From contig CAWDOY010000003.1 in NCBI GenBank assembly GCA_963803975.1, forward strand, positions 192,001-256,000: a DNA stretch of 64,000 nucleotides, written 5' to 3'. This DNA is from an uncultured delta proteobacterium (GTDB lineage Bacteria; Desulfobacterota; WTBG01; CAIYCZ01). The position numbers and the translations under genes were made by a program. Below are positions 4,151 to 13,710 of the stretch, in pieces. The notes beneath the pieces were generated by a model. It was given only the letters and a program-made list of their open reading frames with translations. It ran no database searches and was not told where the DNA came from. The first letter of the stretch is position 1, and each line of letters begins with the position of its first letter.

Positions 4151-6454
4151 ATGAACAGTGAAGTGACACCAGGACCAATACTTCCCCAGGGCAGCAACGG
4201 GCAGCTCAGGGAACAGACGCGGCGCAAACGCGAGCGCCTGATTATTTTAATAGTGGTGGTTCTTGTGGTGCTGCTCACTTTTTTACTCACCTATGTTTCG
4301 GGCCTTGAAGGAGAGATTCTGAAGCTGCAGAACTTTCTGGTGTTTGGCCTCATTAACATCAATGCAATTCTGCTGCTGCTGCTGGTGTTCCTGGTTGTCA
4401 GAAATATCGTAAAACTTTTTTTTGAACGCAGGCGGGGAATTCTCGGCTCTAAGCTGAGGACCAAGCTGGTCGCATCATTTGTGGGGCTGTCGCTGGTACC
4501 GACGCTGCTGCTGTTCTGGGTTGCCATCGGTTTTATTACCAACACCATTGAAAACTGGTTCAGCTTTGAAGTGGAGAGTTCCCTTGAAGAGTCGCTCGAT
4601 GTCACCCAGGTCTATTATAAACGCGCTGCCGACAATGCCCTCCATCTGGCCAGGCAGATAAGTAAGACCATAAATGAAGAGGGGCTGCTGAACGATAAAA
4701 AGCTCGGCGATCTTAAACGCAAAGTAGCTGAGAAGCAGTATGAATACAACCTGGCGATGGTAGAGGTTTATTCAGCACAGGGCAGGGAACTGGCACGCTC
4801 AGCTGATCCGAATATACCGGAACTTAAATACCTTGATCCGGATGCTGCGTTTGCCCAGGAGTCTGCCCAGGGAAAGGAATTGACGCGCATTCAGCCGGTG
4901 GGCGCAGGGGATATCATCCGGGGAATTGTCCCCGTCTATGCAGCAAGCACCCCCGGGTATGTCAACGGTATACTAGCCGTCAGCTATTACGTACCGGAGA
5001 GCCTGGTGTCACGGGTCGAGAAGATATCCTCAGCATTCCAGGAGTACAAGCAGCTCAAGCTTTATAAAAAACCCATAAAGCTTATTTACATCATTATGCT
5101 TTCGGTCATTACCCTGCTGATTATTTTTTCCGCAACCTGGTTTGGATTTCACCTTTCAAAAGTGCTTACCGGCCCCATAGGTGCGCTTGCCGAAGCAACC
5201 GAACAAATTGCTCATGGAAATCTCGATGTGCAGATTGTCCCGACGACAGATGATGAAATGGGAAGTTTAGTAAAGTCTTTTAACAAGATGACCATAGACC
5301 TTAAGGTGAGTAAAGAGCAGATTGAAACTGCAAACATAGACTTGAAGGATAAAAACCAGGAGCTTGACCAGCGTCGCAGCTATATGGAAATTGTCCTCAA
5401 TAATGTAGCTGCCGGTGTATTGTCAGTGAACCGGGAGAATATTATTACCACCTTTAATAAATCGGCAGGGAAAATATTAAATCTGCATATGCAGAACGCT
5501 ATCGGGAGCCCCTATCAGCAGGTTCTGGCCCCGGAGCCGCTCAAGGAACTCCGCAGTCTTATACAGGAAATAAACCGCTCTGGTCTGAGCACGACCGTGC
5601 AACAGATACGTCTTTCTTTTCCCGATAAGGCCACTCATCTGCTGGTTCGGGCCACTATTCTGCGGGATGAAACAGGGGATTACCTGGGAGTGGTTCTGGT
5701 GGCTGAAGATGTCACCGATCTGCAGCTTGCTCAGCGTGCCTACGCCTGGAAAGAGGTTGCCCGCAGAATAGCCCACGAAGTAAAAAATCCGCTCACGCCG
5801 ATAAAGCTGTCTGCCCAGCGGCTGCGCAAAAAGTTTCTCGCGCACATACCGGCTGATGATACGGTGTTTGATGAATGCACCAGGACCATTATAAATCAGG
5901 TGGATGAATTAAAAACGCTGGTAAATGAATTTTCAAACTTTGCCCGTATGCCGGCGACCAACCCGGTGCCGAATGACCTGCATCTGATCATTGATGAAAC
6001 CATGATGCTGTATAAGGAGGCACATAAGAAGATAACCTTTGAGATTACCCGGGATCCTGCAGTTCCGCTTCTCATCATCGATCGAGAGCAGATGAAGCGG
6101 GCACTAATCAATATCCTTGACAATGCCATACACGCAATGGAAAATGAAGGGCGGATTACTATTATCACCGCCTACAACAAAATTCTTGAGATGGTGACCC
6201 TGGAAATTGCCGATACCGGCTGCGGTATACCGCCCGAAATCAAGCACAAGCTGTTTGAGCCCTATTTTTCAACCAAAAAGAGCGGCACCGGCCTGGGCTT
6301 GGCAATTGTTAATACCATCATCTCAGACCATAACGGGTATATAAGGATTCGCGATAACGAGCCGCGGGGTACCCGCTTTATTATTGAACTGCCGGCCCAT
6401 ATCGATGAAACTGCCGTTTATCCTGATTCCGAGAGACTTCATCCGGAGATATGA
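4151..6454 (+). CDS. ntrY: NtrY-like membrane sensor histidine kinase (TM, periplasmic, HAMP, PAS, HisKA, HATPase)
   Basis: H-box WKEVARRIAHEVKNPLTPIKLSAQRL typical of NtrY, N-box NILDNA, G-boxes DTGCGI, FSTK and GTGLGL, N-terminal TM helices. Confidence 0.88.
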   Translation: MNSEVTPGPILPQGSNGQLREQTRRKRERLIILIVVVLVVLLTFLLTYVSGLEGEILKLQNFLVFGLININAILLLLLVFLVVRNIVKLFFERRRGILGSKLRTKLVASFVGLSLVPTLLLFWVAIGFITNTIENWFSFEVESSLEESLDVTQVYYKRAADNALHLARQISKTINEEGLLNDKKLGDLKRKVAEKQYEYNLAMVEVYSAQGRELARSADPNIPELKYLDPDAAFAQESAQGKELTRIQPVGAGDIIRGIVPVYAASTPGYVNGILAVSYYVPESLVSRVEKISSAFQEYKQLKLYKKPIKLIYIIMLSVITLLIIFSATWFGFHLSKVLTGPIGALAEATEQIAHGNLDVQIVPTTDDEMGSLVKSFNKMTIDLKVSKEQIETANIDLKDKNQELDQRRSYMEIVLNNVAAGVLSVNRENIITTFNKSAGKILNLHMQNAIGSPYQQVLAPEPLKELRSLIQEINRSGLSTTVQQIRLSFPDKATHLLVRATILRDETGDYLGVVLVAEDVTDLQLAQRAYAWKEVARRIAHEVKNPLTPIKLSAQRLRKKFLAHIPADDTVFDECTRTIINQVDELKTLVNEFSNFARMPATNPVPNDLHLIIDETMMLYKEAHKKITFEITRDPAVPLLIIDREQMKRALINILDNAIHAMENEGRITIITAYNKILEMVTLEIADTGCGIPPEIKHKLFEPYFSTKKSGTGLGLAIVNTIISDHNGYIRIRDNEPRGTRFIIELPAHIDETAVYPDSERLHPEI

Positions 6455-6511
6455 TGTCAGGGATCGGAGACGGAAGACCGGCGGCACTAATGCAGTGAAG
6501 GATAATAAACG

Positions 6512-8701
6512 GTGAAAAAACCAACCATACTTCTGGTAGATGACGAAGAAGCAATCATAAAATCGCTGTCCGGCAGCCTTGAGGATGAAGGATATGCGCT
6601 GTTGACCGCACAGGACGGAAACGCTGCCATGGAGATAATTAAGACGCAGCCGGTGGACATAGTATTTCTTGATATATGGCTGCCCAGCATGGACGGCCTG
6701 GAAACGCTCAAGGCAATTAAAGAGTATGATCCGTCCCTGGAAATTATCATGATGACCGGTCACGGCACGGTCAATACAGCGGTGCAGGCGGTTAAGCTGG
6801 GAGCGTTTGACTTTCTGGAAAAGCCTTTTTCCCTGGACACTGCCCTGGACATAATAAAAAAAATACAGGGCAAGCGGCAGATTTCCATGAAGACCATGCG
6901 CTATTATGAATCCATTAAACCTGACCGCAGGAAAGTTTTAATCGGTGACAGTCCCGACGCGATTGCCATACGGGACCTCGTTACCTCGTGCGCTGCAACC
7001 GGTGAGCATATTTTAATCCAGGGGGAAACCGGGGCCGGAAAAGAACTTGTTGCGCGGCTTATTCACTTCTCTTCCAGCCGGAAAGAAAGCCCCCTGCTCA
7101 AGTTTAACTGCGCAGCATTCAATGCTGAAGAGATCGAGCGTGAATTGTTCGGTTTTAATGATCCAGAAAATACCGGGATACGGAAAGAAGGTGCTTTGCT
7201 CAGGGCCGGACAGGGGACTCTTTTTATAAAGGCAATCGATCTCATGCCAATGCCGGCACAGCTCAGATTGGCACAGGGTAGTAAGGACCGCTCTTCGCAG
7301 AGTTCAATGCCCCGGATTATTGCTTCTTCCATCAAAGACCCCGACGTTGAATGCAGTGAAGGCCGGCTGCACCGGGAGCTCCTTGCCTGCTTCAATGCGG
7401 AAATGCTCAGGATGCCCCCGCTGCGGAATCGCAGCGGGGATATAGCAGTGCTGCTTAAATATTTTCTGAAATATTTTTGCGAAGAGTACGGGCAGAAAGA
7501 AAAGGCGTTCGAGGATGAAGCTTTTGAGACGCTGATTAACTATGACTGGCCGGGAAATGTCAAGGAACTGAAAAACATGGTAGAAAAAATTGTTGTTTCG
7601 GTTCCTACCAAAAGCATTACCGTGAATGACCTGCCGCAATCGCTGCGCACGGAGATGGAAAACAGTGCTGATCAGCAGTACCTGCGGTACGATACGCTGC
7701 AGGAAGCAGAAAATGCCTGGCGCAAGAACTATCTGCTGTATCATCTGCGCAGAAATAACCGTAACATAGCTGCAACGGCACAGCATCTCCACCTCGGGGA
7801 AGACACCCTGCGCTCATATATTAAACAGTACGGCATTACCCTCATCAGCGGCAGACGGCGCGAGCATAACTATCAGCGCACCCTGAAGCGCAGCATGGTG
7901 CTCAGCGGCCGGGGTCTCCACTCAGGCATCAAGACCGGTCTCATACTGTCGCCGCTGCCTCCAAACAGCGGCATAGTATTCGGCAACATATCCGATGGTT
8001 CAACGATTCCGGCGCATCTTGATTTTGTTGAATCTACTGAGTATGCAACGTCCCTGCGCAAGGGAAACACGCGGGCCAGCACCATAGAGCATGTCCTTGC
8101 TACCCTGCACGCCTACCGCATCAGCAACCTGCTCATAAAAATTAACAATGAAGTGCCCATCATGGACGGCTCAGCGACTGATTTCTGCCAGCTGCTTGAG
8201 GATGCCGGCATTGAAGAACAGGATGCAGAGATTGATGAAATCATTATCTCAGACCGTTACACGATTGGCGAAGTTGCAGCGGACAGAAAGTTCATGGTTG
8301 TTGAACCCTGTGACACCCTGACCATACACTACACGCTTGACTATCCCAGCCCGGTTGGCCGCCAGGAATATACCTTTGTGCTGGAAAATGAGCAGGCATT
8401 CAAAGAACAGATTGCTCCTGCCCGGACCTTCGGCTTTTTAAAAGACATCGAGGCGCTGGAAAAGAAGGGGCTTGCCAGCGGCGGGCGTCTCAATAATTTT
8501 ATACTCATTGATGATGAAAAGATAATTAACACGGAGCTCCGGTTCCCCGATGAATTTGTGCGTCACAAAATACTGGACCTCATGGGAGACCTCTATCTGC
8601 TCGGTCATCCAATAAGAGGTAAAATTACCGCTAACATGACCGGACACACGCAGAACTGCGCGCTGCTTCACCTCCTCCGTGAAAATATCCAGCTCAATTA
8701 G
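6512..8701 (+). CDS. lpxC: Fusion of an NtrX-like response regulator (REC, degenerate sigma54-type AAA+, Fis-like HTH) with UDP-3-O-acyl-GlcNAc deacetylase LpxC
   Basis: REC with LVDDE, FLDIWLP (D54), TGHG, EKP. AAA+ with GETGAGKE and WPGNVKEL. From about 7874: QRTL, GRGLHSG, STIEHVL, EVPIMDGS, IAPARTFGF, RHKILD, GH, which are the LpxC zinc/catalytic motifs. One uninterrupted ORF. Confidence 0.9.
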   Translation: MKKPTILLVDDEEAIIKSLSGSLEDEGYALLTAQDGNAAMEIIKTQPVDIVFLDIWLPSMDGLETLKAIKEYDPSLEIIMMTGHGTVNTAVQAVKLGAFDFLEKPFSLDTALDIIKKIQGKRQISMKTMRYYESIKPDRRKVLIGDSPDAIAIRDLVTSCAATGEHILIQGETGAGKELVARLIHFSSSRKESPLLKFNCAAFNAEEIERELFGFNDPENTGIRKEGALLRAGQGTLFIKAIDLMPMPAQLRLAQGSKDRSSQSSMPRIIASSIKDPDVECSEGRLHRELLACFNAEMLRMPPLRNRSGDIAVLLKYFLKYFCEEYGQKEKAFEDEAFETLINYDWPGNVKELKNMVEKIVVSVPTKSITVNDLPQSLRTEMENSADQQYLRYDTLQEAENAWRKNYLLYHLRRNNRNIAATAQHLHLGEDTLRSYIKQYGITLISGRRREHNYQRTLKRSMVLSGRGLHSGIKTGLILSPLPPNSGIVFGNISDGSTIPAHLDFVESTEYATSLRKGNTRASTIEHVLATLHAYRISNLLIKINNEVPIMDGSATDFCQLLEDAGIEEQDAEIDEIIISDRYTIGEVAADRKFMVVEPCDTLTIHYTLDYPSPVGRQEYTFVLENEQAFKEQIAPARTFGFLKDIEALEKKGLASGGRLNNFILIDDEKIINTELRFPDEFVRHKILDLMGDLYLLGHPIRGKITANMTGHTQNCALLHLLRENIQLN

Positions 8702-8787: not shown

Positions 8788-9315
8788 ATGAGCGAAAGAG
8801 GATACGTTCACGTATACACGGGAAACGGCAAGGGCAAAACGACCGCTGCCCTGGGGCTCGCATTCCGTGCCAGGGGACGGGGCATGCGCTCATATATAGC
8901 GCAGTTTATGAAAGGAGTTGCATACGGGGAGGTCGAGGCGGCAGCGCAGGTTGCCCCGTGGATCATCATTGAGCAGTTTGGCCGTGACATCCGGGACTGC
9001 GTCAATGCGCAGTATGCTGATACAGATGTCACGATGGCCCGCACTGGCTTGAAAAAGGCGGAGCAGGAAATGCTCTCAGGCACGTACCGGATTGTGATAC
9101 TTGATGAAATAAACGTTGCCCTGTACTATAACCTGGTTACCATTCAAGAGGTGCTGCATTTTATACGTAAAAAGCCCTGTGAGGTAGAACTCATACTGAC
9201 CGGGAGATATGCACCTGAAGAGGTACTGAAAGCTGCCGACCTGGTTTCAGAAGTTGTTGAGATCAAGCACTATTTTCAGCAGGGCATTCTGGCGCGGGAT
9301 GGAATAGAGCGTTAA
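8788..9315 (+). CDS. cobO: Cob(I)yrinic acid a,c-diamide adenosyltransferase (CobO/BtuR family)
   Basis: VYTGNGKGKTTAALG, QFMKG, ILDEI, LTGR, ADLVSE. Confidence 0.9.
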   Translation: MSERGYVHVYTGNGKGKTTAALGLAFRARGRGMRSYIAQFMKGVAYGEVEAAAQVAPWIIIEQFGRDIRDCVNAQYADTDVTMARTGLKKAEQEMLSGTYRIVILDEINVALYYNLVTIQEVLHFIRKKPCEVELILTGRYAPEEVLKAADLVSEVVEIKHYFQQGILARDGIER

Positions 9316-9425: not shown

Positions 9426-10082
9426 ATGAAAGTTAACACGATTTTGAATACTGCCTCTCACCGTGAGCTGGAACAGCTTGAAAATAAAACACGCCTTCTC
9501 CTGGTACGCCATGGCGAGCTGGTAACCTCCCGTGAATGGCGGTACGTGGGACATCTTGATGTAGAGCTCAATGAGATTGGAATCGAGCAGATGCAGCGGG
9601 CAGGAGAGCGACTGAAGAGCGAGCAGGTTGACGTTCTTCTGTCAAGTGATCTTAAAAGGACCAGGAAAGGTGCTGAGATTATCGGGACCATGCTGGGACT
9701 TACTCCGCAGTCCCACAGAGAATTCAGGGAAATCAGTTTAGGACAGTGGGAGGGGTTGACCCGTGATGAGATTGCAGCACAGTTCCCTGAAGACTTTGAA
9801 GAGCGGTCAAAGGATCTCCCGCATTACCGAATTAAGAATGGAGAAAGTTTTACTGATTTAAAGAAGCGGGTCATAAAGAAACTGGAACAGACCCTGGATG
9901 AACACCAGGGGAAACGTATCGCTTTAATTGCGCACGGGGGAGTAAATAGAATTATTCTCACGCATGTTCTGGGCATGGACTTATCTCATCTCACGCGCCT
10001 TGACCAGGCATACGGCTGCCTCAATATCATCGACTACTTTGACGGCATGCCAGTGGTGCGGCTTGTCAACAGCACCCCCTAA
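9426..10082 (+). CDS. cobC: Histidine phosphatase, probable alpha-ribazole phosphatase
   Basis: LVRHGE, SSDLKR, GES, AHGGVNR motifs; directly after cobO; ATG at 9426 with a purine-rich RBS. Confidence 0.72.
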   Translation: MKVNTILNTASHRELEQLENKTRLLLVRHGELVTSREWRYVGHLDVELNEIGIEQMQRAGERLKSEQVDVLLSSDLKRTRKGAEIIGTMLGLTPQSHREFREISLGQWEGLTRDEIAAQFPEDFEERSKDLPHYRIKNGESFTDLKKRVIKKLEQTLDEHQGKRIALIAHGGVNRIILTHVLGMDLSHLTRLDQAYGCLNIIDYFDGMPVVRLVNSTP

Positions 10083-10547: not shown

Positions 10548-11936
10548 ATGCCAGAAAATATTTTCACCTTAGCTGACCTCATTAAATCAGGCTATCGCTC
10601 AAAGACCTCCCGGGACTGCCTGTTTCTCATGGTAAAGACAAAGCTTCAGGCAGGTGAAGAGCTGTTCCCTGATATATTCGGCGTTGAAGCGGAAAAGAGA
10701 CGCTTCATCGAAATTTTAATGAGCGGCAAAGGGGCGCTTCTCACCGGTGAATATGGTGTCGCAAAGACAGACCTGGCAAAGCATATCCAGCTTCTTCTGC
10801 ATGAATATCATACACGGGAAGAGATATATTATGTAGAACAGTGCCCGGTGCAGGAGGACCCGTTGATACTGGCCCGGTTCATGTCGTTGCTCCCGCAGGG
10901 GACCATGCCCTATAAGGCAGACCCCTGTCCGATATGCCGTGCGCAGATACGAGATGTAAACGGCGATCAGGAAAAGATTGCCGTGCGGCGGCTGGACGCA
11001 ATCGTTGAAGGCCGGGGATTTGCGCGTGTTCAGGGCGGGGGCGATGTGCTCCCCGAGGAGATCGTCGGCACCTATAATCTATTAAAGCTTGCGCAGATCG
11101 GCGATCCGTTCGACCCGCGGGTATTTGAGCCGGGGAAAATCGGCCAGGCAAGCAGGGGGCTTCTGTTTGTGGATGAAATCGGCAAGCTCTCTGAATCAGC
11201 CCAGCATGCCCTCATTCAGGCGGCTCAGGAGCACTGCATGACGCCGACCAAGAGCAGGGAGACATTCCCGGTTGACTTCATGCTGGTGGCGACCACCAAC
11301 TACGCTGATGAAGAATACATTTGCGGAGCTGTTCGCGACCGCATGGTGAGCCTGAAGATCCCTCTGGTCGGCATTGAGGATGAGATCCGCATTGTGCATA
11401 AGGAAGTAAGCATCTCTGAGCCGCAGATTTATATACCGCGACTGTTTATCCGGCTTGCCGTTGAAGTAATACGTGCTCTCCGGGGTGATGAACGGCTGGA
11501 GCTTGGCCCGCGCACAAGCATTAACGCGGGCCTCATTGCCCGAAGCTCGGCCCTCCTTGACGGCCGCACCATGGCTGACTATTGTGATGTCAAGGAAGGC
11601 ATATATACGGCAATCCTTGGCAAGGCTCTCTATGAAGACAAGCATGATGTGGAGCGAAAAATTGATGAACTATTCCCTGCTATCTCATCATACCTCGAGC
11701 AGCATATCCCGCAGGTGAAGTTCCAGGAAATTACCGGAGAGTACCGGGAGGAATGGGGAAATGATGCAGCCTGGAGCAAAGACCGGGTGGCAATGATTCT
11801 GCAAAAAAAGAGCGTTTCACAATCCTGGAAGCGGCTGCAACAGAACATTTCAGCCCTTGAGAACCGGGCGCAGGATGAAATTGCGGAAATCATATCCCTG
11901 TATCTGTCAGCCTTTGAGAGAGGGTGCGAAAAATGA
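10548..11936 (+). CDS. AAA+ ATPase, Mg-chelatase-ChlI-like/MoxR-related (Rv0958-like)
   Basis: Walker A GEYGVAKT, Walker B LFVDEI, sensor ATTN, N-terminal TLADLIKSGY...LQAGEELFP. Confidence 0.8.
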   Translation: MPENIFTLADLIKSGYRSKTSRDCLFLMVKTKLQAGEELFPDIFGVEAEKRRFIEILMSGKGALLTGEYGVAKTDLAKHIQLLLHEYHTREEIYYVEQCPVQEDPLILARFMSLLPQGTMPYKADPCPICRAQIRDVNGDQEKIAVRRLDAIVEGRGFARVQGGGDVLPEEIVGTYNLLKLAQIGDPFDPRVFEPGKIGQASRGLLFVDEIGKLSESAQHALIQAAQEHCMTPTKSRETFPVDFMLVATTNYADEEYICGAVRDRMVSLKIPLVGIEDEIRIVHKEVSISEPQIYIPRLFIRLAVEVIRALRGDERLELGPRTSINAGLIARSSALLDGRTMADYCDVKEGIYTAILGKALYEDKHDVERKIDELFPAISSYLEQHIPQVKFQEITGEYREEWGNDAAWSKDRVAMILQKKSVSQSWKRLQQNISALENRAQDEIAEIISLYLSAFERGCEK

Positions 11937-13710
11937 AGTGGGCTGCAGAGCTTGAAAAATGGTGCTGGAAGGAAAAAGCCCGCAAGGCCTCAAACAGCGA
12001 GCTGTTTTCCATGTCCCGGTCTTTAAGCAGCAGGCAGGAGATAAGTAAAGATGACATGGAAAAGGCTGTCAGGGACGCCGTATCCTCCCGGCCCGGAAAA
12101 CAGCAGGCGCAAAAGAATGCCGTGAAGGATAATCTGCGGAGATTTGATGAGCAGGCGCAGGAGGAACTGCTCAATGCTTTAAATGAACTTAAGCAGGGAA
12201 GCACCGGAAAAAAAGCAAAAGGCAAAAGCAGCGCTCACCATAGACCGGATGAGAAGGACACTGAACAGGCAGCTTCGGATAAGTCAGATACTGCCTCGCT
12301 GCGTCAGGTTGCTGCATCTATCCTGGATGAGTTACAGAAGCACTATCCGGAGAATGAGAACCTGAAAAAGCTCAAGAAGAAAATACGTTATATAAGAAAT
12401 ATAAAGCAATTATTCGAAAAGATAGAAGATGTTGCTGAGGAACTGGATGAGCATAATAGAGAGAGCACTGAGCAGCCGGAACTGGCACGGGGGCAGGGCA
12501 GAATTGGCGGGCTTTCGCTGCAGCAGGGAGGAAAAGATTCATTGCCCGCTGACGGCTTTGACCGGTTACCTCGCGCTGATGATGAGAAAGAATCCTTTGC
12601 CGGGATACTGACCGATGATGCGGCGGAAGACCTGAAGCATGAAGCACATAGCCCCTGGCTTAAAGATTATCCGTCATCATCGCTTCTTGATCAGGTCATG
12701 AACCTTGGCAGAAAACGGCGGGCTCTCGAGGGGAGAATCAGGCAGCAGTTCTCAAACGAAGTAAACAAGGCGGATATACAGAGCATGATTGACCAGCTCA
12801 TTGAGTCCAGCATCGTGAGCCCGACTTTTCAAGATACTTTTCTGGTCAACCGGGAGCGTGTCGCCATCCAGCTGGCAAAAGAAGCGTTTCTGCAATTATC
12901 AAAGATGTTTGTGCGAAAGCCTTTGGCTCAAACCGGTACCCATGATTACGGCCGCAGGGGAATAACCACCCTGCAGCTTGACCGGGTGGAGCGCTCGCGC
13001 TCCCTCACCTCAAGGATTTCTCCCATGCATACGCTGCGGCAGGGGCTCTCGCGCAGGGCGCTGTACCAGTCTTCGCCGCTGCTTGATGAAGAAGATTTGA
13101 TGAATTACGAAAGCAGGGCAAAAGTCGGCTATTCAATCGTTATTGCCATTGATATATCAGGAGCTGTGCAGTTCGGGGGAAGGATACAGGGGGTGAGGAA
13201 GGCGTGCATGGCATTCGGCTATTACCTGAAGAAGTACCATCCCAGAGACCGGGTCACCTATGTTGCCTATCATGAAAAGCCGCGGGAGGTAAGCCTGGCT
13301 GATGTATCACGGCTGAAGGCAATAAACGGCACGGGCAAAGACATCGGCGGCTGTCTGAGGCAGTGCCTGTCAATTCTGAAAAGAGACCCTGAGCGTGTGC
13401 CGGCGATTGTCCTTATCGGCGACGGGCTGCCGGTGAGCGGGGAGCCAGGCCGGCTTCTACAACTTCATGAATAACAACCGGGAAGTAATTGATAAAGCAT
13501 ATTATAACGCGCGGCTGCTGAGAAAGGAACAGGGTGCTCTTCACCTTTCTGCAGTTCCGTGAAGACCGCCACCTCTGGGAGGATTATGCGGACGAGGCAG
13601 CCGCCCGCATAGCAAGAGAAGCTAAAGGCCTGCTCTATCAGATAGATGACCCCACTACCATTGCTCCGTCACTCATCCGGTCGTTCAGACATCTACGAAC
13701 TATTCAATAG
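11933..13710 (+). CDS. VWA-domain partner protein, two frameshifts near the 3' end
   Basis: MIDAS-like IAIDISGA and IGDGLP. ATG overlaps the ATPase stop. Shifted frames continue ...FYNFMNNNREVIDKAYYNARLLRK... and ...LIRSFRHLRTIQ* to 13710. Confidence 0.75.

Follow-up and report, generated by a model that had tools for sequence, protein, structure and literature searches.

An NtrX-LpxC Fusion Conserved in the Desulfobacterota: A Candidate Phospho-Switch on Lipid A Synthesis

Introduction

LpxC commits cells to the synthesis of lipid A, and its control outside the enterobacteria and Pseudomonas is an open question. Here, we describe a gene of an uncultured delta proteobacterium of the Desulfobacterota in which LpxC is joined in one reading frame to a response regulator of the NtrX type, directly behind the gene of an NtrY-type sensor histidine kinase. 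Both genes lie in a stretch of 64,000 nucleotides (NCBI GenBank assembly GCA_963803975.1, contig CAWDOY010000003.1, positions 192,001 to 256,000), called the window below. Comparative sequence analysis indicates that this fusion is real and conserved and that its evolutionary rationale is well supported: an ancestral transcription circuit of NtrY, NtrX and lpxC has probably been rewired, the receiver now controlling LpxC activity directly, by allostery.

The closest described system is that of Desulfovibrio, from the same phylum-level group, in which a kinase and an NtrX-named regulator with receiver (REC), AAA+ and helix-turn-helix (HTH) domains (DVU2931/DVU2934 and Dde_3000/Dde_3003) are reported to be dedicated to lpxC (PMC3333781, PMC4045070, PMC4641369). 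DVU2934 of D. vulgaris, named ntrX in the supplement, has lpxC as its single target, and lpxC of S. fumaroxidans lies directly upstream of the operon orthologous to that of DVU2934 (PMC3333781). DVU2934 carries GAFTGA (PMC4641369). In a cognate-kinase mutant of D. alaskensis, lpxC alone is strongly up-regulated; the gene has a sigma54 site (PMC4045070). Taken together, the Desulfovibrio results imply an increase of LpxC by the phosphorylated regulator and a kinase that normally holds the regulator back. A link between ntrY, ntrX and lpxC, which an earlier sequence-only reading of the window had proposed for this locus, thus has published genetic support in Desulfovibrio (PMC3333781, PMC4045070). 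The Desulfovibrio regulator is a separate, GAFTGA-bearing sigma54 activator at the lpxC promoter, whereas here the regulator is fused to the enzyme, its motifs are gone and no sigma54 box was found upstream of the locus; unfused relatives of the fusion share both the sigma54 box and the lpxC-ntrYX synteny.

The alphaproteobacterial NtrY/NtrX systems (B. abortus NtrX, PDB 5m7n/5m7o/5m7p; R. sphaeroides; C. crescentus) provide the best NCBIfam and Foldseek match of the N-terminal 448 amino acids (aa) of the fusion, with B. abortus NtrX as the top structural match. Alphaproteobacterial NtrX likewise lacks GAFTGA, has an NtrY-type partner and is tied to the lpxC transcript level (PMC7240162), although the effect on lpxC reported for R. 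sphaeroides is indirect, forms one part of a large regulon and involves no fused enzyme. In comparison with it, the fusion additionally lacks the Walker B glutamate, the arginine finger, the sensor-II arginine and the recognition helix.

Response regulators with an enzymatic output are already known. In the CheB methylesterase and in c-di-GMP enzymes such as PdeR (PMC12471899), an N-terminal receiver and a catalytic domain share one chain, exactly as in the short REC-LpxC proteins reported below. Those outputs, as described there, target signalling molecules or receptors, whereas the output here is a committed, normally essential biosynthetic step, and the LpxC fusion arose from a transcription factor joined to its own target gene. 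LpxC, an essential biosynthetic gatekeeper, is an unusual output. Post-translational control of LpxC has been described for LapB/FtsH/YejM in E. coli and for MurA in P. aeruginosa, including allosteric inhibition or activation by the bound LapB and MurA (PMC12444477, PMC11046580); these proteins act in trans and without phosphorylation, whereas in the present host neither LapB nor YejM was found and the long C-terminal tail of LpxC is absent. LpxC-FabZ of Bacteroidetes, Chlorobi and Verrucomicrobia (PMC3087551) also places LpxC in a fused polypeptide, but joins enzyme to enzyme, at the C-terminus. According to a 2025 review (PMC12444477), LpxC is controlled by proteolysis, by binding of LapB or MurA and by broad transcriptional control; its text does not contain the word fusion, and its section 10 deals only with transcriptional two-component effects on lpxC. 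No description of a receiver-LpxC fusion was found in the open full-text literature, a scope beyond which subscription papers lie and a listing in InterPro or in Galperin's 2010 review is possible; the fusion is apparently undescribed so far.

The Fusion Gene and Its Kinase

The fusion gene starts 57 bases behind the kinase gene (Table 1). Pfam places Response_reg (residues 6-115), Sigma54_activat (143-291, 87 bits), AAA_lid_14 (305-388) and LpxC (455-722) in one frame, in agreement with the sequence-only reading, which had recognized a single open reading frame (ORF) of 729 aa with a receiver, an AAA+ domain, an HTH and LpxC. The LpxC domain scored 285 bits against PF03331 (cut-off 27), and the LpxC part alone passed TIGR00325 (282.7, cut-off 187.25). 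Its zinc-binding and catalytic residues, by alignment to P. aeruginosa LpxC, are E526, H527, H685, D689 and H712. Since the fusion is the sole lpxC of a genome with lpxA, lpxB and lpxK matches, it is presumably an active deacetylase. For the N-terminal part, the NtrX family NF051870 was the best NCBIfam match, at 297.7 below the equivalog cut-off of 600, and the whole protein stayed below the cut-off of the LpxC-FabZ family (215, cut-off 465). Fold searches matched each domain separately and returned no solved chain with both regulator and enzyme.

Table 1. Features of the NtrY and NtrX-LpxC locus (positions in the window)
Feature	Position	Strand	Details	Basis
NtrY-type sensor histidine kinase	4151..6454	+	767 aa; NtrY_N, HAMP, PAS, HisKA, HATPase	Pfam
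NtrX-LpxC fusion gene	6512..8701	+	single 729-aa ORF, GTG start; sole lpxC of the genome	ORF list, Pfam
Receiver domain, NtrX-type	6518..6871	+	aa 3-120; D10, D11, D54 (codon 6671-6673), T82, K104	
Degenerate AAA+ core	6932..7426	+	aa 141-305; Walker A retained (7022-7042); GAFTGA loop, Walker B glutamate and arginine finger gone	
AAA+ lid	7427..7666	+	aa 306-385; Lys351 replaces Arg at the sensor-II position	
Relic Fis-like helix-turn-helix	7685..7846	+	aa 392-445; recognition-helix motif of free NtrX gone, first helix kept	helices in AlphaFold2 model
LpxC deacetylase	7874..8698	+	aa 455-729; zinc ligands, catalytic residues, short C-terminus, V463/G476/I478/K543	

The kinase has the domains and motif of an NtrY-type protein, with the H-box histidine at H542, an asparagine four residues on and four hydrophobic stretches by hydropathy, and it was the only NtrY_N protein found in a search of the host genome; its initial description as NtrY-like holds. 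A kinase/phosphatase role of the H-box motif has been described for PlrS (PMC13001219). Scans for sigma70 promoters and terminators gave chance-level results, and contigs from RNA libraries overlie parts of both genes, although contigs cannot demonstrate transcription.

The host genome is 98% complete. The fusion was its only lpxC match, and no free NtrX stood out among its AAA+ regulators. LapB was not found in this genome (best match 46.6 bits against a cut-off of 363), nor was YejM, and the E. coli control matched in these searches. A Zn_ribbon_LapB match was rejected as LapB, as it sits in a 466-aa ORF that resembles RadA and that we take to be RadA-like.

Apparent frameshifts in lpxB and lpxK elsewhere in the assembly meant that an artefact, in which an indel or a lost stop codon joined two genes, had to be ruled out for the fusion as well. 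One contig per run, in four runs that come from three studies, reads through positions 7800-7900, the region of the junction, in frame and without a listed indel. The only in-frame starts near the boundary, ATG 7895 and GTG 7898, lie seven and eight codons within LpxC, with no Shine-Dalgarno-like run before them by eye, as the sequence-only reading had argued when it dismissed two genes merged by error. Moreover, 118 of the 120 best protein matches span 98-100% of the query at 51-98% identity, and all 20 other genomes of the host's order carry LpxC in a frame of at least 623 aa. The artefact is refuted, its remaining probability being negligible. The split genes themselves lie outside the window (G000:C9:93183-94248 for lpxB and G000:C9:97601-98517 for lpxK), each broken into two frames; the bamA-skp-lpxD-fabZ-lpxA-lpxB-msbA-kdtA-lpxK-like cluster around them, in which some of the neighbours were named by eye, is otherwise intact. 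Both splits are probably indel errors.

Conservation and Decay of the Regulator Module

The regulator module was compared in an alignment of 112 long fusions, and separately in 29 long fusions set against 14 free NtrX proteins of unfused relatives. The receiver residues D10, D11, D54, T82 and K104, those of a phosphorylatable receiver, and the LpxC residues E526, H527, H685, K686, D689 and H712 are invariant (112/112), so the intact phospho-acceptor and the EH, HKxxD and GH signatures first noticed in the window extend to the family. In the wider set of 321 fusions described in the next section, 319 retain the phospho-aspartate and all retain the catalytic residues of LpxC. The receiver (mean pairwise identity 0.67) is nearly as conserved as LpxC (0.70), followed by the lid (0.57), the HTH region (0.51) and the AAA+ core (0.37). 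Two representatives of 50%-identity clusters, P0264 and P0270, have the phospho-aspartate replaced (by Asn and Ser, respectively); P0270 also lacks the acidic pair and the lysine and is a pseudo-receiver fusion.

For the AAA+ module, we rely on what we take to be the defining motifs of sigma54 activators, namely GAFTGA, the Walker B Asp-Glu, the arginine finger and the sensor-II arginine. In the 112 fusions, G171, G174, G176 and K177 of Walker A are invariant, while the GAFTGA loop, Walker B glutamate, arginine finger and sensor-II arginine are each found in none, the sensor-II position being lysine in 111. The smaller set agrees: GAFTGA, Walker B Asp-Glu, arginine finger and sensor-II arginine occur in 0/29 long fusions, and the HTH is deleted in six of the 29. 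Free NtrX proteins have a GAFTGA-type loop in 14/14, Walker B Asp-Glu in 13/14, the arginine finger in 12/13 and, when full-length, the sensor-II arginine in 13/13. The role of Walker B is described elsewhere (bioRxiv 2023.06.06.543975). With the activator motifs gone, the module, judged by its residues, cannot activate sigma54 and very probably does not hydrolyse ATP; it may still bind nucleotide. The sigma54-type AAA+ domain of the sequence-only reading is therefore one by descent, its catalytic and sigma54-contact motifs having disappeared. The Fis-like HTH needs a similar amendment: its fold is predicted in an AlphaFold2 (AF2) model, but the recognition-helix motif of free NtrX (12/13) survives in only one of the 112 fusions and is gone from the window's protein, which has no Pfam HTH_8 match. 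Two of three free NtrX HTH segments tested do match that profile, the free NtrX L115 missing it.

Distribution of Receiver-LpxC Fusions

At least 321 distinct fusions with a full receiver were gathered, a lower bound pooled from several searches that each reported their best matches, so the homologous fusions expected in related genomes do exist. Five architectures occur: REC+LpxC (170), REC+AAA+lid+HTH+LpxC (137), the latter without HTH (11), REC+HTH+LpxC (2) and REC+AAA+LpxC (1). Only the receiver and LpxC are common to all five. Linkers between receiver and LpxC in the short form are 27-55 residues long and unconserved. Databases label the fusion proteins as plain NtrX or plain LpxC.

Within the host's class, a frame of at least 623 aa also holds LpxC in most of one further family, and lpxC is free in two families (9 genomes). 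Of 151 genomes sampled evenly across the host phylum, 37 have LpxC in a frame of at least 400 aa with a fusion-type score; this count excludes G209, which proved to be free, and 14 of the 37 were checked by domain scan. Homologs at 57-61% identity come from sources mostly named Thermodesulfobacteriota/Desulfobacterota or Deltaproteobacteria. Among the best 80 loci of a scan of named genomes, long fusions were found in records labelled Nitrospina, Desulfomonile and Syntrophaceae, and short receiver-LpxC fusions in Syntrophorhabdus, Syntrophobacter, Desulfopila, Binatia, Thermoanaerobaculia, Nitrospirota and Bdellovibrionota.

Several unusual records were met in these searches. Very long lpxC frames in three GC-rich genomes, candidate triple fusions of kinase, receiver and LpxC, turned out to be short fusions of the usual kind, the frame upstream of which contains no stop. 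Locus L032, a long fusion, lies on a 3.1-kb contig with an archaeal label but groups within the host's order, the label being most likely a binning error. Three divergent receiver-LpxC fusions (P0301, P0305 and P0309) score low on the LpxC profile of the family and carry just some of the fusion-specific residues described below; they could represent an independent fusion.

Of 43 distant genomes with the fusion, 39 have no other full-length lpxC and 40 have an NtrY ortholog, often without a regulator gene within 1.5 kb. In eight of the Acidobacteriota-labelled genomes, a sigma54 regulator encoded at a distance from ntrY also matches free NtrX (E 1e-140 to 1e-146); the Trp after the phospho-aspartate is missing from the four that were examined, which are probably paralogs.

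The Ancestral Circuit and the Direction of Change

In unfused relatives, lpxC, a DUF4390 gene, ntrY and ntrX are consecutive in 12 of 20 regions (two cut by a contig end) and in four named loci. A sigma54 -24/-12 box, required to have GG and GC and to match 7 or more of 8 other consensus positions within 250 bases upstream, was found before 17 of the 22 free lpxC genes scored (0.05 on average and at most 1 in shuffles); one of 23 genes, whose start is off the contig, was omitted. Such a box was found before none of the 27 ntrY genes heading fused loci, none of 34 other fused loci (related genomes, some loci possibly operon-internal with the operon head unscanned), none of four DUF4390-headed fused loci and not upstream of the window's own locus. 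The boxes before free lpxC (L002-L024) occur over many families of the phylum, and this pattern suggests that the NtrX-lpxC regulon of Desulfovibrio is phylum-wide. Within the host's class, a free canonical NtrX (E <= 1e-120; 40 candidates scored per genome) is present in seven of the nine genomes of unfused families vs none of 33 others.

In Bordetella, DUF4390 (PlrP) is described as a third, periplasmic component of the system, which holds phosphatase activity in check (PMC13001219). Its gene is present in the unfused relatives and at some fused loci. In the host genome, it was found neither by a hidden Markov model of 16 relatives' genes nor by Pfam, for which the controls were silent.

In a quick tree of LpxC, 73 fused domains stand on one side of a branch and 55 free ones, chosen by similarity and not as a census, on the other (Shimodaira-Hasegawa-like approximate likelihood-ratio test, SH-aLRT, 100), which fits one fusion event followed by spread. 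In a receiver tree of 119 columns, 64 fused and 14 free NtrX receivers separate from 41 other receivers of the host genome (SH-aLRT 96); this grouping and the position behind an NtrY kinase both indicate descent from NtrX, the fused receivers not forming one group inside the NtrX set. Long and short forms interleave in free trees, suggesting that AAA+ and HTH were lost repeatedly, although a single split was not rejected by the approximately unbiased test (p-AU 0.437; 28 vs 20 rows, with 20 near-duplicate or redundant loci excluded). The direction from long to short is taken from the NtrX-type receiver and the intermediate architectures.

Features of the Fused Enzyme

Between 13 and 23 residues follow the catalytic histidine in fused LpxC (72 rows, one gapped row excluded), compared with a median of 43 in free LpxC (n=55). 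Many free relatives terminate in small non-polar residues, as does the FtsH degron of E. coli (PMC12444477), and it is our guess that these tails are degrons. On three strands of domain I, the fused enzymes have V463, G476, I478 and K543 in place of polar, variable or acidic residues of free LpxC; the strict pattern is present in 282 of 321 fused and in none of 101 free sequences, most exceptions having Ala at 478. These residues appear to face outward, which suggests a docking face.

An AF2 model of one short fusion had a predicted local distance difference test (pLDDT) of 88 and a predicted template-modelling score (pTM) of 0.82, with a disordered linker. By our own rough estimate, an unplaced receiver would give a pTM of 0.62-0.70, so the model hints at a defined pose of receiver and LpxC. 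A complex prediction of the receiver (1-125) with LpxC (450-729), both given as alignments, scored 0.00, which speaks neither for nor against contact. Mean-field covariation in 324 fusions (effective number 92, about 390 columns) gave scattered inter-domain pairs and no cluster, and was uninformative.

Proposed Mechanism and Alternatives

In the proposed ancestral state, NtrY would phosphorylate or dephosphorylate NtrX, which, as a sigma54 enhancer-binding protein, would turn on the transcription of lpxC. After ntrX and lpxC had fused, the sigma54 promoter, activator motifs, DNA-recognition helix and C-terminal tail of LpxC would have been lost and the receiver kept intact. NtrY, as a membrane kinase/phosphatase, would then set D54 phosphorylation according to a periplasmic cue, probably envelope status, and the state of D54 would most likely alter the contact of receiver and LpxC, directly or via dimerization, and thereby deacetylase activity and lipid A flux. 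The AAA+/HTH block would act as a spacer or dimer scaffold, without hydrolysis but perhaps still with bound nucleotide. Because the transcription parts have decayed and the promoter box is gone while the phospho-switch and the kinase are kept, the switch most likely acts on the enzyme; the dispensability of AAA+ and HTH across the family and the ancestral sigma54 control of lpxC both strengthen this idea. Phosphotransfer, allostery, polarity and signal are all inferred here. If the ancestral polarity was kept, phosphorylation activates the fused enzyme, an outcome that the Desulfovibrio analogy slightly favours over the reverse. The view of the sequence-only reading that NtrY tunes lipopolysaccharide synthesis through the fusion gains from the conserved fusion, the intact NtrX-type receiver and the sole NtrY of the genome, and from searches that found no other lpxC, free NtrX, lapB or yejM there, while the decay of AAA+ and HTH and the ancestral sigma54 control of lpxC had been overlooked in that reading.

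A further-reaching version has about an even chance: a dedicated envelope-sensing kinase would set lipid A flux by phosphorylating a receiver docked to a face that LpxC has newly evolved, and this would be the first phospho-switch to act directly on the enzyme. Its relatives would retain each step from transcriptional to allosteric control (canonical activator, dead ATPase, HTH loss and bare receiver-enzyme), and the dead AAA+ pocket of the long form may sense nucleotide.

Three other explanations were weighed against direct control of activity. Receiver phosphorylation may govern the amount or location of LpxC, by exposing a site for Lon, ClpXP or FtsH or by tethering to NtrY, and not its intrinsic activity. 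In E. coli and Neisseria, LpxC is known to be controlled through proteolysis and membrane localization (PMC12444477), an N-terminal substitute signal is conceivable in an enzyme without the longer C-terminal tail, and the linkers of the short form are unconserved; yet the fusion-specific LpxC residues and the high pTM of the short form better suit a folded contact, and LapB and YejM were not found in the nearly complete genome, which leaves this explanation unlikely. Slightly less probable is that the long form is a bifunctional trigger enzyme, whose NtrX part acts as a sigma54-independent DNA-binding regulator modulated by LpxC or its substrate. Alphaproteobacterial NtrX, the source of the top structural match, also lacks GAFTGA (bioRxiv 2023.06.06.543975) and bound DNA sites in chromatin immunoprecipitation sequencing (PMC7240162), and the fusions have an invariant Walker A lysine and an HTH region with basic residues and a mean identity of 0.51. 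However, B. abortus NtrX retains Walker B Asp-Glu and the recognition motif in the alignment, the fusion has neither, and the family has lost the motif almost throughout, the HTH in some long forms, and AAA+ and HTH together in 170 of 321 fusions.

The decay of AAA+ core and HTH is also what would be expected of a frozen accident, in which lpxC was captured by the ntrYX promoter and the regulator is decaying, the receiver having no control of the enzyme. The loss of the phospho-aspartate in two of the 321 fusions fits this, as do three near-standalone LpxC representatives with fusion-type residues and no receiver, which may be truncated records. We regard such an accident as improbable, given a receiver nearly as conserved as the essential enzyme, stepwise loss of the intervening module and retention of NtrY in distant genomes that often have no regulator gene beside it.

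Several observations weigh against direct control by the receiver. Four of the 43 distant genomes have, in addition to the fusion, a free lpxC, preceded in every case by a sigma54 box, and a strong match to free NtrX, which in three of the four lies directly behind ntrY; both modes can therefore coexist, and the fusion has not displaced transcriptional control everywhere. Receiver and enzyme are about 330 residues apart in the long forms, and the conservation of Walker A, lid and first HTH helix makes a second role possible. The AF2 model of the window's protein (pLDDT 84) had a pTM of 0.48, the value expected of unplaced domains. An equally short C-terminus occurs in 11 of the 55 free LpxC, the exposure and adjacency of the fusion-specific residues were deduced from strand alternation and not from coordinates, and residues common to one clade can reflect descent alone. 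Finally, DVU2934 was likened to free NtrX without a sequence test of orthology, and the compared genomes are related, so that counts are not independent. The double-mode loci (L185-L189 with L075, L076, L077 and L092), which include a named Desulfopila isolate and have the short form of the fusion, offer a natural test case.

Direct control of LpxC by the fused receiver would have wider implications. The fusion suggests direct signal control of outer-membrane synthesis, and the family, which covers a good part of the host phylum, offers a new, easily testable mode of LpxC control. In the fusion lineages, lipid A homeostasis would be the dedicated job of NtrYX, and LpxC activity a direct read-out for finding the NtrY signal. 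The fusion is also a clear case of a regulator merging with its own target.

Neighbouring Genes

Further downstream in the window, positions 10548-13474 hold a MoxR/ChlI-like gene of the AAA+ type and, behind it, a 516-aa ORF that matches VWA weakly, terminates within this domain and may be frameshifted. A cobA-like gene at 8788-9315 was matched in only three relatives of the host family and weakly in one distant locus. Just downstream of the fusion, a CobC-like histidine phosphatase is encoded at 9426-10082 (TIGR03162 158.9, cut-off 162.9), and 12 further genomes of the order have a homolog close to the fusion.

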